From: Patescibacteria group bacterium
GTDB lineage: Bacteria > Patescibacteriota > Kazan-3B-28
Assembly: GCA_041649135.1 (NCBI GenBank)
Contig: JBAZNQ010000001.1
Coordinates: 227,037-291,036 of the forward strand
DNA: 64,000 bases
Direction of reading: 5' to 3'
Shown here in pieces: positions 22,034 through 30,716 of this stretch; positions within the stretch are counted from its first letter, which is position 1, and the number at the start of each line of letters is the position of its first letter. The notes beneath the pieces were generated by a model that ran no database searches, was not told the DNA's origin, and was given only the letters and a program-made list of their open reading frames with translations. A program made the translations under genes and the position numbers.

Positions 22034-22188
22034 ATCTTGTAGAATAATTTAGCAATATATTCTTTCTGTTCGACATCTCCGGTCAACTTACAAACTAGCA
22101 ACTACCCCCACATCTTCTAGTCAACATCACCGCAGATATTTTTAGACGAACAGTACTAAATTTCTCTACGGAGCATATCCCCAGTATA

Positions 22189-22218
22189 ACAAAACGGCGA
22201 ATCTTCGCCGTTTTGTTG
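22189..22218. terminator. Bidirectional terminator hairpin AACAAAACGGCG-aatctt-CGCCGTTTTGTT
   Basis: 12-bp perfect stem with A/T runs built into the stem ends. It bounds the accessory island. Confidence 0.5.
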
Positions 22219-22378
22219 TTATATAAGTTCAACTGAAGAAATAACTATTTCTTCTTCTTATTCTTCTTCTCCTTCTTCTTCTTTGGTGCCATGTCTTAAG
22301 TCCCCATAACTTATCTGGTATAACCCTTTAATTATTGGCTCTGTACCGTACAAGTCAAGAATCCATTTTGGGGACAAC

Positions 22379-23221
22379 TTACCTAGATGGCACGATCACA
22401 AACCTCTCCGCCAGCGTAATAGCGTATCTTACAAATTCCAGCGTCTCCAGATATCGTTTTTGGTCTGCTGGCTGATGGATAGAAATATCAGGATCTTGAC
22501 GCTCATTCCAGCAGTAATCGATCAGATCTGCCCAGTTATGGTCCAGATTCTCCTTCGCCCAAATCATACCCGTCAATTTGGAATCGATCGTACTAGTATG
22601 GAGGTCGTGCAACATCCGACAATAATTTAGCACCAGATAAGACTGATAGAACCGATTATTGATCTCGTCGGGATTGTTAAATATGACCCGCCCCCAACCC
22701 AACATGGTATTGCGGATCTCTCTCCTCAAATCGTTGGGATCAACTGGATTTGTGATACCACTAGCAGGTGGTCCAGCGATCGCAATGCCTTTGTTATACA
22801 GGGTCCACCGTGTTACTAACGTATTACAGTGATCATTTTTCTCAATAGTTTGGCTGCCATTATCGAAATACCACAGTTTTTCATTATCTTCATTCACTCC
22901 AGATTCAGTAAATGGAGACGACGATTGTTGTAATAATAGCAACGGGAAAAATGAATATTCCAAATGCTTCGCCCATTTCGTCTTCAGTTGATAAATATCG
23001 TCATGAATAGCTTGCACCTTTTTAACTTCACTTTCCGACAACTCGTTTTTCACAACCACAATAAAATCCACATCGCTAGTTTGATCAAAACCACCAGTCG
23101 CCAACGATCCTTGCAGATAGTAACCGACAAAATTATCGCCTAATCCAACCTGCAACATTTTTGCATGTTGAATAAAAAGTTCATCCAATTCGGGATAGTC
23201 CGTATATTTCTTTGATTCCAT
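22379..23221 (-). CDS. Aminoglycoside/lincosamide nucleotidyltransferase-like protein (AadA/ANT(3'')(9) family)
   Basis: Pol-beta NTase motif YLQGSLATGGFDQTSDVDFIVVV and IHDDI parallel the AadA/ANT(9) YGSAVDGG…SDIDLLVTV…HDDI motifs. Length (280 aa) fits an AadA-type protein with a C-terminal DUF4111-like domain. Confidence 0.7.
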   Translation of the reverse strand: MESKKYTDYPELDELFIQHAKMLQVGLGDNFVGYYLQGSLATGGFDQTSDVDFIVVVKNELSESEVKKVQAIHDDIYQLKTKWAKHLEYSFFPLLLLQQSSSPFTESGVNEDNEKLWYFDNGSQTIEKNDHCNTLVTRWTLYNKGIAIAGPPASGITNPVDPNDLRREIRNTMLGWGRVIFNNPDEINNRFYQSYLVLNYCRMLHDLHTSTIDSKLTGMIWAKENLDHNWADLIDYCWNERQDPDISIHQPADQKRYLETLEFVRYAITLAERFVIVPSR

Positions 23222-23323
23222 ATAACTATGTGCTTCTGGCCGAGTGTCTCAAGCTGGAACTTTTGGAAAGACAAACCCAGACAGCTATATTTCAGCTAGT
23301 TTTGTGACACCATCCCAAGTCAA

Positions 23324-23701
23324 CTAGCGCGGATAAATAATCCCTGCCCTTCCTTGCTGACCAGACGGAGTATAACACTTGTCGCACTCAAAGCACTTCC
23401 AGCCGTCACCCCATTCTTGAAGTCGTATCCTTTTACGCGAACCATCAAGACATTTCTGACAAAAAGGCACCGGATCGTCTTCTTTCCAATAAAGACCATC
23501 TTTCAAGTCAAAGTCTTGTGATGCTTCTAGTTGAAGCTTAATAATTTGGTTCTCTTCTTTTAGCGCGATATTCTCGTCCTTAAGAGCGACAATATACTCT
23601 CGTAGGCTTACGATTTTTTCTTGCAAATCAAGAGTAGCGGCTTTTTTCACTAACTCTGTCAATGACTCCAGAATTGATTTTACCTCTGTAAAATTCATCA
23701 T
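23324..23701 (-). CDS. Hypothetical coiled-coil protein with a C-terminal C4 zinc ribbon
   Basis: Heptad-rich N-terminal half. CQKC…CFECDKC. Confidence 0.45.
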   Translation of the reverse strand: MMNFTEVKSILESLTELVKKAATLDLQEKIVSLREYIVALKDENIALKEENQIIKLQLEASQDFDLKDGLYWKEDDPVPFCQKCLDGSRKRIRLQEWGDGWKCFECDKCYTPSGQQGRAGIIYPR

Positions 23702-23891
23702 GAATAATCTCCCATTATTTTAATTTTAGCCACTTATCAAAAACAGCTTCTCGAGCGGAACAACCTATCTCTCTTTGGCTGGGCAGACGGGTTGAGATTG
23801 CCACCCAAAGGAGATAATTTAGAGGTTCTGACAAGATCGGGAGAGGGACTGGTTTATTGTAGAACCTGAGGGCAAACAAGCCAACATTCTG

Positions 23892-24722
23892 CTATTTTTT
23901 CGGCTCAGGATTTGGCTTTTCAAGCTCACAGACCAGAGACACAATCTTGGGATATTTTAGGTCATCGTTAAACAGAACCCGATAGTAATGCTGTCTATGT
24001 AATTCTCTCTCCACTGAGTCAGTAATATAGGCAACATACTTTCCGAAATAGGTTGAGCTACCTGGGTTAAACAAGTTGAAAAATAGTTTATACTCTTTAT
24101 TCCTCGAGCGCCCCGCTAACTGTTTACGGTAGACGTAAATATTATCTTCTTGCCCACTGGCGGGGTACATCTCAGATGAACCACCCTTAACTTTGCTCGT
24201 AGCCACCGCACTTTCACGGAATCCCCAATCTTTTTTCTTAAGAGATTGCTTGGCTGCAGATTTAGCGGATTTATCTACGCTCTTCAGGATTGGGCTTGTT
24301 TTACCTTTATTCCAATGAATTTCCGTCCGAACACCAGTTTTGTATTTGACCGATAAATATTCTTTCCATAAATCTGGGTTCTCGATTGGTCGCCCTGAAG
24401 CATTGCGGTATCCAGCTTTTCTCCATGCCTCAGCTCTATTCTGGTTGTTGCTGACATATTCAGAATCGGTGAATATTAAAACTCTACCTATATCCACGCC
24501 AGCCAAATGCTCTCGAACCCATCTCATGGCTTTAATACAAGCCATCAGCTCCGCCCGACTGATATTGGTTTTATCAAATCCCTCGTTAAAGATCTCCTGA
24601 TCCTCTGTCATCCAGGAATCAGGGTATTCCACCCAACCAGCAATACCGCCTACGCCACCAGGATTGTTATAGGCAGATCCATCAATGTAGATTTTTAGAG
24701 CGTGTGGGTCATAAATAGCCAT
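23892..24722 (-). CDS. RNase H (type 1) domain fused to a ~125-aa C-terminal domain of unknown function
   Basis: IYIDGS (Asp), RAELMA (Glu) and IFTDSEYV (Asp) catalytic triad region, then W-KGK and a later Asp. The C-terminal half has no recognisable family. Confidence 0.65.
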   Translation of the reverse strand: MAIYDPHALKIYIDGSAYNNPGGVGGIAGWVEYPDSWMTEDQEIFNEGFDKTNISRAELMACIKAMRWVREHLAGVDIGRVLIFTDSEYVSNNQNRAEAWRKAGYRNASGRPIENPDLWKEYLSVKYKTGVRTEIHWNKGKTSPILKSVDKSAKSAAKQSLKKKDWGFRESAVATSKVKGGSSEMYPASGQEDNIYVYRKQLAGRSRNKEYKLFFNLFNPGSSTYFGKYVAYITDSVERELHRQHYYRVLFNDDLKYPKIVSLVCELEKPNPEPKK

Positions 24723-24821
24723 AGCCCTACACTTTAGCTCAAAATACCACTCTTTGCGAATGGTCAGACAGGGAGATAGGCTTACTACAGCATCTAGACA
24801 TTAGCTGAGACAATGGTGTTT

Positions 24822-25469
24822 CTATTTAATTCTTCTCTCTGCTTCGGCAAAATGTTTTTCTATTGTTTTTATATCAGAAATTATGTCAGTAATAACCTCA
24901 TAATTAACCCATTCGTAAGGTTCACGAACTTGATACACGCCCCCACCAGATTTCTTTTGTTTTAGCCGCTCGGGAAATCTTTCTTTCTCGTTCAATCTGT
25001 CAGGATGTTTTTTATCCTTTCTTTCGGGGTCATAGGTTCCATAATAATATTTTTCAATAGTAGACCAAGTCGCATTACGTAAATCAAGTAGGATATTGTA
25101 ATTGTTCTTATGTTTATTTTTTGCCTCTATAATAACCAGCTCGAACAATACTTTCAAATCATGACTTGCCCCATACTGACTGTGGATATTGATGTTCCCA
25201 AGTCCTTTCAACCACAGCTCAATTCCTTGTTTAAAATTAAAAATAATCGGCCAAATCAACTCATAATTAGAATGCCCTGAACGGAATCCTAATTTCCTAA
25301 AAATACTGCGGCTCGTATCATTAAGGTCAGAGTGTGACAAAAAATCACTACGCGGACATATCTCTTGTGCTGTATGCAATGCATTCGCAAGATAAGCTTG
25401 TGGCATAACTAGCCAATGATAACGTTTTCCTTTATTACTCTTTTGTAACCTGGGTAGTTTTGATGGCAT
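24822..25469 (-). CDS. Hypothetical protein
   Basis: 215-aa ORF in the accessory island. No recognised motif. Confidence 0.45.
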   Translation of the reverse strand: MPSKLPRLQKSNKGKRYHWLVMPQAYLANALHTAQEICPRSDFLSHSDLNDTSRSIFRKLGFRSGHSNYELIWPIIFNFKQGIELWLKGLGNINIHSQYGASHDLKVLFELVIIEAKNKHKNNYNILLDLRNATWSTIEKYYYGTYDPERKDKKHPDRLNEKERFPERLKQKKSGGGVYQVREPYEWVNYEVITDIISDIKTIEKHFAEAERRIK

Positions 25470-25509
25470 AAATCATAGGGGGTATAATCGTCTTTCTTTG
25501 TCTGGGTTT

Positions 25510-25992
25510 TCATTCTCCAATATACCCATAATGTTTTAAATAATTTGCAATTGCATAGGGATCCGGGAAAGAATCTACCGACTTTCTATTTTGGACTACC
25601 GAAATCCAACACGACTTTTTTGCATCTTGATCGAACCAAGGATCCGCAGTCGCATACTGAAGATAGACCACCAACAGAACAACCTGATTAAGATTCTCTT
25701 CTTTCGCTCGCTTAAAGATTGGCTCTGTTTTCTTTTCCTCTTCTTCAATTTGTTTTACACCCTCTTCCGATAGAGCAAATTTTGAATTCAAAATAAATCT
25801 AGCCCAAGCTTTGGCATCAGCAACTTTTTCAATTTGTTCGAAAAAGCGTTGATACTCAACTGGTTTTCTTCGTAGTTCGTTTAAATACTCGTCTGTCTCT
25901 GTCCCAAAAAGTTTAGATAAAAATCCCATAACAATAAAATTTAATTTATCAACCCATTTTATTTGACTAGGCACACGGGTCGCTTGACTCAT
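25510..25992 (-). CDS. Hypothetical protein
   Basis: 160-aa ORF immediately downstream of tRNA-Gln. No recognised motif. Confidence 0.45.
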   Translation of the reverse strand: MSQATRVPSQIKWVDKLNFIVMGFLSKLFGTETDEYLNELRRKPVEYQRFFEQIEKVADAKAWARFILNSKFALSEEGVKQIEEEEKKTEPIFKRAKEENLNQVVLLVVYLQYATADPWFDQDAKKSCWISVVQNRKSVDSFPDPYAIANYLKHYGYIGE

Positions 25993-26000
25993 GCACCTTC

Positions 26001-26075
26001 TGGCTGGGGCGGCAGGGATCGGACCTGCGAATCACGGGACCAAAACCCGTTGCCTTACCACTTGGCTACGCCCCA
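26001..26075 (-). tRNA. tRNA-Gln (anticodon UUG), CCA encoded
   Basis: Reverse complement reads UGGGGCGUAGCCAAGUGGUAAGGCAACGGGUUUUGGUCCCGUGAUUCGCAGGUCCGAUCCCUGCCGCCCCAGCCA. 7-bp acceptor stem with U1-A72, anticodon loop UUUUGGU, T-arm GCAGG/CCUGC, 3' GCCA. Resembles E. coli tRNA-Gln (UGGGG…CCCCAGCCA). Confidence 0.85.
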
Positions 26076-26893: not shown

Positions 26894-27181
26894 ATGACTA
26901 ATTCATATGTATATATCACAACCACTCAAATTAACGGAACGCTCTATGTCGGAGCAACTGGAAACCTAAAGAATCGTGTCTATCATCATCGGCTAGAAAA
27001 TCTAAACCATTTTACAAATAAACACAGGGTTGACCGATTAGTTTATTACGAGATACACCTCACGCCAGAAAGCGCATTTGCCCGAGAAAAACAACTCAAG
27101 AAATGGAACCGTAGCTGGAAAATAAAACTCATTGAAACAAAAAACCCAAGCTGGAAAGATTTATATCAAGATTTTTGTTAA
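26894..27181 (+). CDS. GIY-YIG nuclease family protein (YhbQ/UPF0213-like, 95 aa)
   Basis: YVYI…NGTLYVGATGNLKNRVYHH GIY-YIG core, then the conserved Glu and the LKKW motif. Confidence 0.8.
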   Translation: MTNSYVYITTTQINGTLYVGATGNLKNRVYHHRLENLNHFTNKHRVDRLVYYEIHLTPESAFAREKQLKKWNRSWKIKLIETKNPSWKDLYQDFC

Positions 27182-29117: not shown

Positions 29118-30716
29118 TTAATTTCGACTCATTTTGGGACCGCTTGAGGTATCCTCTACCGCAAAACCTAATCTACTAATTTGTGTGCGAAGCTGGTCTG
29201 CCTTTTTCCAATTCTTAGCCTGACGCGCTTTTTCCCGCTCTGCTACCAGTTTTTTCACCTCCACGGGAATCGTTAATGGCTTATCATCTTTCAGCCCCAG
29301 CCCCAACACTCTATCGAAATCCAGTAGGGTGGTCTGCTTATCAGCCAATGACTTTTTTGATTTCACTAACTCCCAAACTACCGCCATCGCCTTTGACATA
29401 TTCAAATCATCATTCAGAGCCGACCCGAACCGTTTTTTGTATGTTGCGTCCACTTTCCCCTTGCCATTCTCCTGCTGTACAGCAGGACGGGAATCCATTT
29501 TTGTTTTTCCTGTCTGGATCCCCGATCGAGTCGGGGATGACGAGGAAGAGATGCTGAATACAGCTCGAAGTTTATTCAAGGAATTGCTAGCACCTTCCAA
29601 TGCCTGCAACGAGAACACAAGGTTACTACGATAATGGCTACCAATCGCCAAGTAACGAAAAGCAATTGGATCAACTTCATTTTTTACTAAATCAGCCAGA
29701 TTAATAACATTGCCTTTACTTTTTGACATCTTAATCATACCCATTTCTTCACCGCAAACTCCGCACTTGCCACAATAAACCAAAGTACCATCTGGTAGTC
29801 TCTTTCTAACTAGCTTTCTCTTGCTGATAGATGTTTCATGCCCCTTGCTACATACCATTTTATTGCTTACCCAGCCAATAAAACTCAATGGATCAATTAC
29901 CATAAAGGCATTATGGAACCAATATTTTGCCAACGGCTTATTGTATGCCGCTTCGCTTTGCGCAATTTCATTATTGTGATGTGTCGCAATATGATCCTCT
30001 CCGCCAGTATGAATATCAAATGGTTGACCTAATTCTTTAGTAGAAATTGCCGAACATTCAATATGCCAGCCCGGATACCCCACCCCCCAAGGAGATTTCC
30101 ACTCCTGTTGCCGTTTTTCTGTTCCAGAAAACTTCCACAGCGCAAAATCGGTCTGCCTCTTCTTTTCCTTGCTGTGCGCCACCCTCGCTCTGCTCGAAGA
30201 CCCCCCAAAGCCTTGGCGAAGGGGGGCCAGCTTGCCGTATCCCTTAAATTTTGCGGTATCAAAATAAATCCCATCAGTAGTTTTGTATGTGTATCCCTTT
30301 TTCTCTAATTTTTTAATTAAAGCTATTTGTTCCTTGATGTACTTACTCGCCCATGCAAATTTCACCGGCATTTCAATATTCAACGCTTTCAAATCTTTCA
30401 TAAACTGCTCGGCATAAAACTTGGTAATTTCCTTCGCGGTTTTGTGCTCTTTCTTTGCTTCTCGTTCTACCTTGTCTTCGCCCGTATCCGCATCAGACGT
30501 TAAATGCCCAACATCCGTAATATTCATTACCTGTTTCACTTTGTAGCCGTTGTATTCCAAAGTTCGGCGCAAAATATCTTCCGCCAAATATGCTCGTAGA
30601 TTACCGATATGCGCATACTGATACACTGTTGGTCCGCAGGTGTACATCGAAACCTGGCCTTTCTTCAAAGGCCTAAATTCCTGCTTCTTCCGACCTAGTG
30701 TATTGAATAGCTTCAT
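29118..30716 (-). CDS. cysS: Cysteine--tRNA ligase (532 aa) carrying an in-frame palindromic-element insertion in the linker before the anticodon-binding domain
   Basis: HIGN, KMSKS (KMSKSKGN) and a zinc-binding Cys. A ~25-aa extra segment is encoded at 29455-29541 by a GTCATCCCCGA…palindromic element. Confidence 0.9.
   Translation of the reverse strand: MKLFNTLGRKKQEFRPLKKGQVSMYTCGPTVYQYAHIGNLRAYLAEDILRRTLEYNGYKVKQVMNITDVGHLTSDADTGEDKVEREAKKEHKTAKEITKFYAEQFMKDLKALNIEMPVKFAWASKYIKEQIALIKKLEKKGYTYKTTDGIYFDTAKFKGYGKLAPLRQGFGGSSSRARVAHSKEKKRQTDFALWKFSGTEKRQQEWKSPWGVGYPGWHIECSAISTKELGQPFDIHTGGEDHIATHHNNEIAQSEAAYNKPLAKYWFHNAFMVIDPLSFIGWVSNKMVCSKGHETSISKRKLVRKRLPDGTLVYCGKCGVCGEEMGMIKMSKSKGNVINLADLVKNEVDPIAFRYLAIGSHYRSNLVFSLQALEGASNSLNKLRAVFSISSSSSPTRSGIQTGKTKMDSRPAVQQENGKGKVDATYKKRFGSALNDDLNMSKAMAVVWELVKSKKSLADKQTTLLDFDRVLGLGLKDDKPLTIPVEVKKLVAEREKARQAKNWKKADQLRTQISRLGFAVEDTSSGPKMSRN
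29455..29541 (-). repeat. Bipartite palindromic element inserted in frame within cysS
   Basis: Minus-strand sense: GTCATCCCCGA-ctcgat-CGGGGAT, CCAGACAGGAAAAACAAAAATGG, ATTCCCGTCC… This is the same architecture as the intergenic copies. Confidence 0.65.

Follow-up and report, generated by a model that had tools for sequence, protein, structure and literature searches.

Gene content of the tRNA-Gln locus

The stretch of DNA analysed here (the window, 64,000 nucleotides, from an uncultivated bacterium of the Patescibacteria) carries a tRNA-Gln(UUG) gene, five minus-strand open reading frames and a strong hairpin (Table 1), all of which are present where a sequence-only reading had placed them. 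That reading described a tRNA-adjacent accessory island of five monocistronic-looking genes, reaching as far as the hairpin. The spacers from tRNA-Gln to the nucleotidyltransferase (NTase) gene measure 8 (or 71), 40, 99, 190 and 102 nt, and the genes could not be confirmed as monocistronic, since a consensus scan found no terminators between the five. The palindrome has 14-nt arms of perfect complementarity and folds into a stem of 13 bp closed by a 4-nt loop (ΔG -21.7 kcal/mol on the minus and -24.1 kcal/mol on the plus strand), with U-rich flanks on either strand. The G+C content of the five-gene block is 0.37-0.42 and thus lower than in the flanks (~0.45). The earlier domain calls agree with our profile results: AadA_C and NTP_transf_2 were found in the NTase and RNase_H in the fusion protein, domain searches gave no family match for the Zn-ribbon protein, ORF4 and ORF5, and none of the five proteins matched an integrase.

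Table 1. Features at the tRNA-Gln(UUG) locus (positions in the window)
Feature	Position	Strand	Description	Basis
tRNA-Gln(UUG)	26001-26075	-	anticodon ttg, CCA end encoded; insertion target	ARAGORN; Rfam tRNA model, 60.1 bits
ORF5	25510-25992	-	160 aa as called	
ORF4	24822-25469	-	215 aa	
RNase H fusion (RNase HI-OB)	23892-24722	-	276 aa	
Zn-ribbon/coiled-coil protein	23324-23701	-	125 aa	
NTase	22379-23221	-	280 aa	
Palindrome	22188-22217		terminator-like hairpin, bidirectional, 3' of NTase gene	
Strain-variable cassette	23784-26000	-	2,217 bp; ORF5, ORF4 and RNase HI-OB gene	absent from L063
Direct repeat CCCAGCCA, proximal copy	26001-26008	-	8 bp; last 8 nt of tRNA	L063 overlap, three-way alignment
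Direct repeat CCCAGCCA, distal copy	23776-23783	-	8 bp; far cassette end	L063 overlap, alignment
19-nt motif ACCCGTCTGCCCAGCCAAA	23774-23792	-	distal cassette end, overlaps distal repeat	local alignment
19-nt motif, second copy ACCCGTGTGCCTAGTCAAA	25962-25980	-	between tRNA and probable ORF5 start	local alignment

A presence/absence polymorphism at the tRNA 3' end

The empty site is documented by one short contig only (L063, 1,400 bp, JGI sample 3300037067). By blastn and alignment, this contig joins window positions 26839->26001 (99.3% identity) to 23783->23217 (100% identity). The tRNA-Gln 3' end is thus connected directly to the DNA upstream of the Zn-ribbon gene, which defines positions 23784-26000 as the variable block (an indel of 2,225 bp if one copy of the repeat is included). 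The two blastn segments overlap by 8 nt, as in the three-way alignment, and the join restores a complete tRNA-Gln exactly. The occupied junction is found in the same sample (contig L003), so both alleles co-occur, and L063 stems from a distinct strain because it differs from the window by 6 SNPs on one flank. Hence one Patescibacteria population is polymorphic for the presence or absence of the cassette, which abuts the 3' end of tRNA-Gln(UUG) exactly; the 8-bp repeat that bounds it, CCCAGCCA, regenerates the tRNA 3' end. L063 contains the Zn-ribbon gene with 100% identity, so that this gene occurs in both alleles and is not part of the indel, and the NTase gene likewise lies outside the polymorphism.

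A lone contig of 1.4 kb, assembled from a complex metagenome, could be an assembly chimera, with no polymorphism behind it. For L063 we regard this as extremely improbable. The junction identity of 8 bp is far below any assembler k-mer and cannot cause a k-mer chimera, the complete tRNA is restored exactly at the join, the SNPs fit a second strain, and another assembly made independently (Logan SRR8542065) also has branches, both in the tRNA and no more than 20 nt from the site. The Logan branch at 23774-23803 lies 20 nt off the branch point predicted for this indel, an offset that is unexplained.

The cassette genes have GC3 values of 0.29-0.42, compared with 0.476±0.051 for the other genes of the window; ORF5 (0.29) and ORF4 (0.315) are both more than 3 SD below that mean. 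What stands of the proposed island is therefore variable, compositionally foreign and integrase-less DNA 3' of tRNA-Gln, although only 23784-26000 varies and the end is not the hairpin at 22.2 kb. The att-like repeat of the tRNA 3' end, expected there, does mark the far end as a direct repeat, at 23776-23783 and not near 22.2 kb. A general search for tRNA 3'-end repeats gave nothing above noise, and searches of the window yielded neither an integrase nor terminal inverted repeats nor a pseudo-tRNA.

No close relative with at least 60% identity in the flanking genes was found for synteny analysis. In two of three related lineages (L052 and L055), tRNA-Gln is followed on the same strand by an NTase homologue (70% and 55% identity). 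In L052, the NTase gene starts 26 nt after the tRNA, with neither cassette genes nor the Zn-ribbon gene; in L055, 4.9 kb of other genes follow the tRNA, together with a partial tRNA-Gln pseudogene (39.8 bits). Both loci are without ORF5, ORF4 and RNase HI-OB. Comparison of the locus thus shows the cassette to be absent from L063, L052 and L055, but the NTase, retained in the empty-site strain and linked to tRNA-Gln elsewhere, is a resident flank and not cargo. Since this linkage persists while the DNA between the two differs, the 3' flank of the tRNA is a recurrent insertion hotspot.

Resident and cargo proteins

The NTase matched the Pfam profiles AadA_C (2.9e-9) and NTP_transf_2 (2.5e-6) and has at least 485 homologues, many of them from Patescibacteria; its codon usage and GC3 are host-like. 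It shares the two-domain NTP_transf_2 plus AadA_C build with AadA/ANT(3'')(9) and ANT(9) (PDB 4CS6, 5G4A, 6SXJ; PMC6065190), and the ATP/Mg2+ residues S36, S46, D47, D49, E87, R192 and K205 are all conserved with respect to AadA22. The determinants of spectinomycin and streptomycin recognition in AadA are W112, D182 and H/N185 (PMC6065190). These are replaced across 120 members of the NTase family; W112, D182, E183 and H/N185 give way to D/E/K, R, Q and Y/F. The ANT_9 model scored 47.6 bits against a cut-off of 340, and none of more than 5,000 aadA-carrying plasmids showed BLAST similarity. The likeness to aminoglycoside or lincosamide adenylyltransferases thus holds for the architecture, whereas assignment as an ANT enzyme was rejected on the score and the missing determinants. 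Assignment as an MNT antitoxin was also rejected: the protein is full-length AadA-like without a HEPN neighbour, it scored 18.1 against the MntA model (cut-off 60), and the grouping with MNT antitoxins that would have spoken against the sequence-only reading was not seen. Judged from these residues, the NTase is of AadA architecture (formerly DUF4111 type) with a predicted intact two-metal nucleotidyl-transfer site and a substrate pocket that appears to differ from that of aminoglycoside ANTs. It falls into the class described as having 'similar architecture' but possibly 'different function' (PMC6065190).

The Zn-ribbon protein consists of a coiled coil and a CxxC...CxxC motif. No family scored above threshold (phrog_1244, 6.8e-4), and its one full-length relative (28.7% identity, E 2e-5) is encoded by a temperate phage of Latilactobacillus, as a hypothetical gene.

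Among the cargo, ORF5 belongs to a rare family, for which a search of 1.84 billion proteins gave only 26 representatives (E<=1e-3) and which has the conserved motifs YQ..F, LQY..AD and W..V.NR..D.FPD; some homologues have N-terminal membrane domains (DUF6804 or RDD). Searches of PDB, Pfam and phage proteins gave no match. The matches begin at query residue 24-32, and homologues and one gene caller favour M22 (position 25929), which is probably the true start. ORF4 is a near-ORFan with five homologues in 5.8 billion proteins; its N-terminus is conserved among these, indicating that the 215-aa start is real. Two ORF4 relatives (P0125 and P0124) reached 20.2 and 17.5 bits with Pfam HEPN, under the cut-off of 22, and window ORF4 gave nothing, while its residues 159-213 match PDB 3hlz (E 5.9e-4). 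ORF4 may accordingly be a distant HEPN-like protein. The locus resembles type VII MntA/HepT systems in having an NTase and, within the same 4 kb, a protein that may be HEPN-like. Here, however, they are not adjacent but separated by two genes, the NTase is a 280-aa protein with an AadA_C domain, and the two belong to different evolutionary units, one resident and the other in the cassette.

In the RNase H fusion, residues 8-156 match RNase_H (9.5e-14; PF00075 at 52.2 bits, cut-off 25.8), and the C-terminal ~110 aa match no Pfam family, as the sequence-only reading had noted; structure prediction then gave an OB fold for this part. The catalytic residues D14, E58, D86 and D150 of the RNase HI domain (~1-160) are invariant or nearly so among homologues. 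The AlphaFold2 model has a pLDDT of 94.5 and a pTM of 0.89, and Foldseek aligned the RNase HI domain with E. coli RNase HI at TMt 0.75-0.85. The C-terminal domain (~190-268) has the topology b1-b2-b3-helix-b4-b5, and its best folds are LEF-3, RecO, PriB and SSB-type OB folds (TM 0.46-0.57, all E>=5e-3). The model is thus that of an intact RNase HI followed by a canonical OB-fold domain, the latter called from topology and weak Foldseek E-values.

The DEDD active site and the fold, with TMt up to 0.85, are common to RNase HI-OB and E. coli RnhA, and the alignment region corresponding to the basic protrusion of the E. coli enzyme is retained. The score with the rnhA equivalog model (68.5 bits) is nevertheless below the cut-off of 160. 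Whereas E. coli RnhA relies on SSB for targeting, the window protein has its own predicted C-terminal OB-fold domain; moreover, the window gene is dispensable, because the empty-site strain lacks it. Known fusions of bacterial RNase HI carry a hybrid-binding domain at the N-terminus or a CobC-type phosphatase at the C-terminus; an OB fold is not known as a fusion partner. With at least 140 clusters of full-length homologues at 40-50% identity, RNase HI-OB belongs to a widespread unnamed family. Its homologues sit among ORFan genes, one of them 630 nt from an integrase/excisionase pair on a temperate-phage contig (L064). The most likely activity of the protein is cleavage of the RNA in RNA/DNA hybrids, and the fused OB fold would anchor it to neighbouring single-stranded DNA, be it at primers, at R-loops or at intermediates of phage replication.

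Origin of the cassette and relation of its genes

A tyrosine integrase that acts at the 3' end of a tRNA requires just 7-8 bp of identical overlap, as shown for mv4 Int (bioRxiv 10.1101/2023.11.06.565760), and island ends are marked by regenerated tRNA genes and displaced fragments (PMC4383910). Like Islander-type tDNA islands, islets and prophage remnants (PMC4383910), the cassette directly borders the 3' end of a tRNA gene, regenerates the tRNA with a direct repeat of its 3' end at the far boundary, is strain-variable and of foreign composition and carries cargo without known function. Unlike these, it has no integrase gene, measures only 2.2 kb, and its repeat is of overlap-region size (8 bp) with no recognisable displaced tRNA fragment. 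[quoted passage not shown] Such entry implies what is left of a larger integrative element or temperate phage, or else an islet that is non-autonomous and was moved in trans, and an origin of this kind at a tRNA insertion hotspot is most likely.

Whether the polymorphism between L063 and the window itself arose by insertion is about an even call. The repeat has only 8 bp, and CCCAGCCA has three chance occurrences on each strand of the 64 kb. To meet it again a few kb or less on the downstream side is thus not unusual, and the empty allele could be a RecA-independent microhomology deletion between two chance copies, the occupied allele being ancestral; only deletions restoring the tRNA 3' end would survive selection. 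The end of identity after 8 bp (4/12 upstream positions match) and the lack of integrase and inverted repeats fit such a deletion, which we consider possible though somewhat doubtful. Against it speak the strongly foreign composition of ORF4 and ORF5 and the 19-nt motif over the distal repeat, which recurs 21 nt inside the proximal end with 16/19 positions identical. These copies are the only matches in the window, and the alignment score of 13 (background 8.4±1.5, reached by 1.4% of background segments) is of modest significance because the test was made post hoc. Furthermore, the three genes are missing at the outgroup loci L052 and L055, so they were inserted at some time even if the present polymorphism is a deletion.

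A single five-gene island from tRNA to hairpin, maybe a defence or resistance module, is in line with the shared strand, the non-core genes and reduced G+C, the closing hairpin, the absence of the Zn-ribbon gene from L052 and its lowish GC3 (0.39), the weak HEPN signal in ORF4 relatives and a PADLOC match of the NTase domain to the candidate PDC-S09 (2.6e-8), the one match from the block. It is largely refuted by L063, which retains the Zn-ribbon and NTase genes, and we consider it highly unlikely; the NTase is tied to tRNA-Gln in two other lineages, has host-like codon usage and lacks the aminoglycoside determinants, and no tRNA-end repeat was found near 22.2 kb. In addition, the block genes did not co-occur in five other RNase HI-OB, two ORF4 and three NTase contexts, which leaves a functional module unsupported.

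Only a little less improbable is a new three-gene anti-phage system on a mini-island. ORF5, ORF4 and RNase HI-OB are closely spaced on one strand and were gained or lost together at a tRNA hotspot, with the HEPN-like hint in ORF4 and RNase HI-OB homologues among ORFans and beside a phage integrase. Yet the partners are absent from all the other RNase HI-OB and ORF4 contexts, PADLOC had no match for the three, and the numbers of RNase HI-OB clusters (at least 140), ORF4 (5) and ORF5 (26) homologues make an obligate partnership impossible.

The whole is thus probably best explained as a composite, in which a strain-variable 2.2-kb cassette at a tRNA-Gln hotspot adjoins resident Zn-ribbon and NTase genes. 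The locus is a tRNA insertion hotspot of the ordinary kind rather than a resistance or defence island of five genes, and the three cargo genes are independent passengers, not one system.

Gene order and an empty-site allele

The window is part of a Patescibacteria MAG, on a contig of 420 kb, and the same strain was met in at least three other data sets. The sequence-only reading had placed a five-gene accessory island between tRNA-Gln and a hairpin at 22.2 kb. The gene order, the tRNA, the hairpin, the domain calls and the lack of an integrase were all recovered as described by ORF, ARAGORN, repeat and domain scans.

Features of the tRNA-Gln locus (window coordinates)
Feature	Position	Strand	Remarks
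tRNA-Gln(ttg)	26001-26075	-	encoded CCA end; cassette begins at next base
ORF5	25510-25992	-	
ORF4	24822-25469	-	
RNase H fusion	23892-24722	-	
Coiled-coil/zinc-ribbon protein	23324-23701	-	
Nucleotidyltransferase (NTase)	22379-23221	-	
Perfect palindrome, 14-nt arms	22188-22217		folds as 13-bp hairpin, -21.7 (minus strand) and -24.1 (plus strand) kcal/mol

The spacers among the five ORFs measure 40, 99, 190 and 102 nt, and the true start of ORF5 is probably M22. Unusual structuring was confined to the ORF5 leader and the NTase 3' region (z -4.4). The 71-nt leader, which runs from the tRNA to the probable ORF5 start (25930-26000, minus strand), folds into two hairpins (-19.5 kcal/mol, z = -3.3). 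Past the NTase stop and ahead of the terminator hairpin, an (AAG)n-rich tract holds a tiny ORF (22240-22287, minus strand; MAPKKKKEKKNKKKK followed by a stop) that has a GGGGA motif 8 nt upstream of its ATG and was called by no gene caller. On the other side of the block, 0.8 kb upstream of the tRNA, lies a small GIY-YIG gene (26894-27181, plus strand) of markedly low GC3 (0.33). The cysteinyl-tRNA synthetase (29118-30716, minus strand) appears to have a Cys-rich, zinc-ribbon-like insert (…VCSKGHE…YCGKCGVCGEE…) just before KMSKS and a Ser-rich low-complexity insert further along.

A search for contigs encoding exactly the same zinc-ribbon protein led to L063, a 1,400-bp contig of JGI sample 3300037067 in which the upstream neighbours of this gene differ from those in the window. 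In blastn comparison, positions 3-841 of L063 matched window 26839->26001 with 99.3% identity (6 mismatches) and included the 5' end of ArsR, a small ORF and the whole of tRNA-Gln. Positions 834-1400 matched window 23783->23217 with 100% identity and included the intergenic stretch, the zinc-ribbon gene and the beginning of the NTase gene. Both segments have 8 nt in common, CCCAGCCA, of which the window has a second copy at 23776-23783. The 2,217 bp encompassing ORF5, ORF4 and the RNase H fusion (23784-26000, here termed the cassette) are carried by one strain and missing in another; the indel comprises 2,225 bp and is located at the exact tRNA 3' end with the 8-bp repeat. ARAGORN found tRNA-Gln intact in L063, hence the tRNA is intact in both alleles. 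Since the zinc-ribbon gene and the NTase start are retained in the empty-site strain, a five-gene island reaching to 22.2 kb had to be abandoned. The att-like repeat of the tRNA end expected at that border does exist, but 1.6 kb away from it, so that two of the five genes are left out.

An occupied junction (contig L003) is present in the same JGI sample, indicating that both alleles coexist, and 8 bp of identity do not suffice for an assembler to create a chimera through shared k-mers. The Logan assembly SRR8542065, which is independent, is likewise interrupted within the tRNA and at 23774-23803, where contigs L002 and L058, covering 26052->23774 and 23803->15540, share exactly 30 nt. Branching occurs 20 nt inside the cassette instead of at the 8-bp repeat, which hints at a third allele with the last ~20 nt of the cassette in common. 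Exact-protein look-ups with the 150-aa membrane protein and ArsR returned the same strain only. Searches for close relatives for synteny yielded at most 42% identity with the ZIP transporter in genome contigs and at most 36% over full length with MurB in metagenomes, and neither set could be used for the comparison.

The tRNA-Gln hotspot and the origin of the cassette

The G+C content of the block is 0.37-0.42 compared with ~0.45 in the flanks. GC3 values of ORF5 (0.29) and ORF4 (0.315) are more than 3 SD under the mean of the window's other genes (0.476±0.051), the zinc-ribbon gene takes a middle position with 0.39, as does the RNase H fusion with 0.42, and both the GC3 (0.44) and the codon-usage score of the NTase gene are host-like. 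The genomic context of the NTase was examined in three independent relatives. In L052 (70% NTase identity), tRNA-Gln(UUG) is located 26 nt upstream of the NTase gene on the same strand. In L055 (55% identity) it is found 4.9 kb upstream, again on the same strand, and the interval is filled with unrelated genes (methyltransferase, aldo-keto reductase, PEMT and others). The third locus, L051 (71% identity), has no tRNA within 3.1 kb upstream. A specific tRNA would be expected by chance within 5 kb on one side at well under 1% of loci, so the linkage is ancestral. In L055, a related Patescibacteria contig, the intact tRNA-Gln is followed at a distance of 43 nt by a partial tRNA-Gln(UUG) pseudogene (1119-1173; 39.8 bits over tRNA model positions 9-63), a scar of integrase activity of the classic type at the same tRNA. 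L055 likewise has a GIY-YIG gene, which abuts its tRNA-Gln, and a second copy of it. The variable DNA is that between tRNA-Gln and the NTase gene; the NTase is the resident flank and the tRNA flank is the hotspot.

The cassette would have arrived by site-specific recombination at the tRNA 3' end. By the Islander definition, tDNA-integrated genomic islands lie at the 3' side of an intact tRNA or tmRNA gene, and their ends are normally marked by a regenerated tRNA and a displaced tRNA fragment (PMC4383910). The cassette shares with such islands its position 3' of an intact tRNA, its presence or absence among strains (L063 versus L003 and the window) and its atypical composition. However, Islander-type islands encode a tyrosine integrase, whereas no integrase was detected among the five proteins with Pfam, NCBIfam, PHROGs or PADLOC, and tblastn of the window with the integrase of L064, an IMG/VR phage contig, gave nothing credible. 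Given the absence of an integrase from the cassette, it would represent a remnant or a non-autonomous islet.

What recurs at the far end is no more than the terminal 8 nt of the tRNA, a repeat which was noticed only once the empty-site contig was known and which fits a tyrosine-recombinase overlap and chance microhomology alike. Tyrosine integrases acting at tRNA 3' ends need identity over a 7-8-bp overlap only, as described for mv4 Int (bioRxiv 10.1101/2023.11.06.565760). The region 23650-23950 contained no match to a tRNA model, and neither a 25-mer search for the tRNA 3' end with 3 mismatches nor general local alignment returned anything above noise. The main rival to integration is a deletion in the sister strain via microhomology, and the window contains three copies of the 8-mer on each strand; even so, the outgroups and the composition mark the three genes as foreign.

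Besides the 8-bp repeat, a 19-nt imperfect direct repeat (25962-25980 and 23774-23792, 16/19 identical) is located near the two cassette ends. The 8-bp repeat of the tRNA end forms part of its distal copy, and its proximal copy lies 21 nt inside the proximal end. This motif, whose score is matched by 1.4% of background segments and which is absent from IMG/VR, could represent a scar or the site of a recombinase. The proximal copy resembles a degenerate version of the tRNA-end repeat (CCTAGTCA compared with CCCAGCCA). Two further modes of acquisition were rejected. An integron-like cassette array had been suggested by the small same-strand ORFs with spacers, but Pfam/NCBIfam scans showed no integrase of any kind and a repeat scan no imperfect inverted repeats in the spacers. 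DDE-type transposition was discarded for lack of terminal inverted repeats (9/23 end positions matching by eye).

The nucleotidyltransferase and the RNase H fusion

The NTase consists of NTP_transf_2 and AadA_C domains and has at least 485 homologues with 50-74% identity, many of them in Patescibacteria, annotated for instance as 'aminoglycoside adenylyltransferase domain-containing', 'DUF4111' or 'predicted nucleotidyltransferase'. Its best PDB match is AadA-type (E 6e-4). With ANT(3'')(9) and ANT(9) enzymes it has in common the NTase N-domain, AadA_C and catalytic D47, D49 and E87. We compared it and 120 family members with plasmid-derived AadA22 in a MAFFT L-INS-i alignment, on which the residue assignments depend. 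The ATP/Mg2+ ligands S36, S46, D47 and D49, the catalytic base E87, R192 and K205 were conserved in 100%. Spectinomycin is recognized via W112, D182 and H/N185, and streptomycin additionally requires W173 and an insertion at 177-178 (PMC6065190). In the window protein W112 is replaced by D, D182 by R and H/N185 by Y. The 120 homologues have D, E or K at 112, R at 182 (100%), Q instead of E183 (all) and Y or F at 185 (100%), leaving W173 as the sole aminoglycoside determinant kept in the family. Scores against NCBIfam were 47.6 bits for ANT_9 (cut-off 340) and 27.6 bits for ANT_3pp_I (cut-off 375). These family scores and the replaced substrate determinants rule out an ANT(3'')(9)/ANT(9) enzyme. 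In tblastn, none of more than 5,000 aadA-carrying plasmids matched; plasmid matches were restricted to 22 'domain-containing' genes from Deinococcus, Bacillus, Priestia and Legionella.

An MNT antitoxin, the other assignment considered for the NTase, was likewise excluded. MntA-type antitoxins are NTases of ~100-140 aa beside a HEPN toxin, whereas the NTase studied here is a full-length two-domain protein of 280 aa with a C-terminal AadA_C domain, scores 18.1 against the MntA model (cut-off 60 bits) and has no HEPN neighbour in the window, L051, L052 or L055. As judged from its residues, the protein is a predicted active nucleotidyltransferase whose substrate pocket differs from that of aminoglycoside ANTs. 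AadA-like proteins of this kind may differ in function (PMC6065190).

In the RNase H fusion, residues 8-156 match RNase_H (PF00075, 52.2 bits, cut-off 25.8), and the ~110 C-terminal residues fall into no family. The housekeeping rnhA equivalog cut-off was not reached (68.5 versus 160 bits). We found at least 140 full-length homologues (40-50% identity, ~95% coverage), named only 'ribonuclease HI', with Patescibacteria and Neomarinimicrobiota among the named sources. D14, E58, D86 and D150 are invariant or nearly so, and conservation extends to the C-terminal part. In an AlphaFold2 model (pLDDT 94.5, pTM 0.89) the N-terminal domain could be overlaid on that of E. coli RNase HI by Foldseek (E 4e-13, TMt 0.75-0.85), and by both sequence and fold the protein is a genuine RNase HI, ruling out a transposase. 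The predicted C-terminal domain has the order b1-b2-b3-helix-b4-b5 of a canonical OB-fold. Its nearest folds are the ssDNA-binding OB folds of baculovirus LEF-3, RecO, PriB, phage SSB and DUF669, all weak matches (TM 0.46-0.57, all E >=5e-3), and it has no Pfam family and no sequence relative in the PDB. E. coli RNase HI gets its ssDNA targeting from SSB. By analogy, the modelled OB domain would supply such targeting in fused form. We found no description of this RNase HI-OB fusion in the literature.

Cultured phages and plasmids carry the RNase H domain alone. In an IMG/VR profile search one of 324 RNase H matches was full-length (L064), and single-sequence searches of viral contigs with four of the proteins returned nothing. 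The L064 homologue lies 630 nt from the integrase/excisionase pair of a temperate phage with terminase genes. In L064 150-2939 it stands directly beside the integrase/excisionase-like genes, and next come genes for HNH endonucleases, a sigma-like factor and terminase. In three cellular contexts the fusion gene is surrounded by ORFan genes. We infer that it travels as an accessory gene; it is dispensable, as the empty-site strain lacks it.

The remaining proteins and the meaning of the locus

Domain scans assigned ORF4, ORF5 and the zinc-ribbon protein to no family. Among 5.8 billion proteins, 5 homologues of ORF4 were detected, two of which gave sub-threshold HEPN scores (20.2 and 17.5 bits, Pfam cut-off 22). 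The window protein itself did not match Pfam HEPN, no Rx4-6H motif was seen by eye among its invariant residues, and its C-terminal 55 residues are matched by PDB 3hlz. The possible HEPN likeness is a lead and nothing more. In L049 an ORF4 homologue is followed by a gene (805-1347) whose 180-aa product matched no Pfam family but contains WRNILAHQW, an R-x4-H motif of the kind typical for HEPN RNases. For ORF5, a search of 1.84 billion proteins gave 26 representatives, and some relatives have N-terminal membrane domains. The single full-length phage relative of the zinc-ribbon protein is encoded by a temperate Latilactobacillus phage, between a DNA-binding protein and HNH/terminase genes.

A defence or resistance module formed by the five genes is not borne out. 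No two of them co-occurred at the other loci examined, and the very unequal family sizes rule out obligate partnership. PADLOC-DB 2.0 returned nothing for RNase HI-OB or ORF4, a weak REase_II match for ORF5 (1.3e-3) and, for the NTase domain alone (residues 10-106), the single-gene candidate PDC-S09 (2.6e-8). We consider it highly improbable that the cassette is an autonomous, integrase-independent unit, be it a new defence islet of HEPN-like ORF4, RNase HI-OB and ORF5 or an element whose RNase HI-OB aids its own insertion at the tRNA CCA end via an RNA/DNA-hybrid intermediate. If insertion were aided in this way, the 19-nt subterminal/terminal repeat would be the recognition site.

The locus is an ordinary tRNA-associated variable islet, mapped here to single base pairs in a lineage not in culture, and none of these results overturns current understanding. 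For annotation, they avert the misreading of an NTase family common in the candidate phyla radiation (CPR), which includes Patescibacteria, as an aminoglycoside-resistance gene. They also draw attention to the RNase HI plus predicted OB-fold architecture, which is widespread and unnamed (at least 140 sequence clusters over several phyla and at least one temperate phage) and would be an easy biochemical target. Patescibacteria are uncultivated, have small genomes and are regarded as poor in classical mobile elements. For this group, the cassette documents at base-pair resolution a gene flux between strains at a tRNA hotspot.
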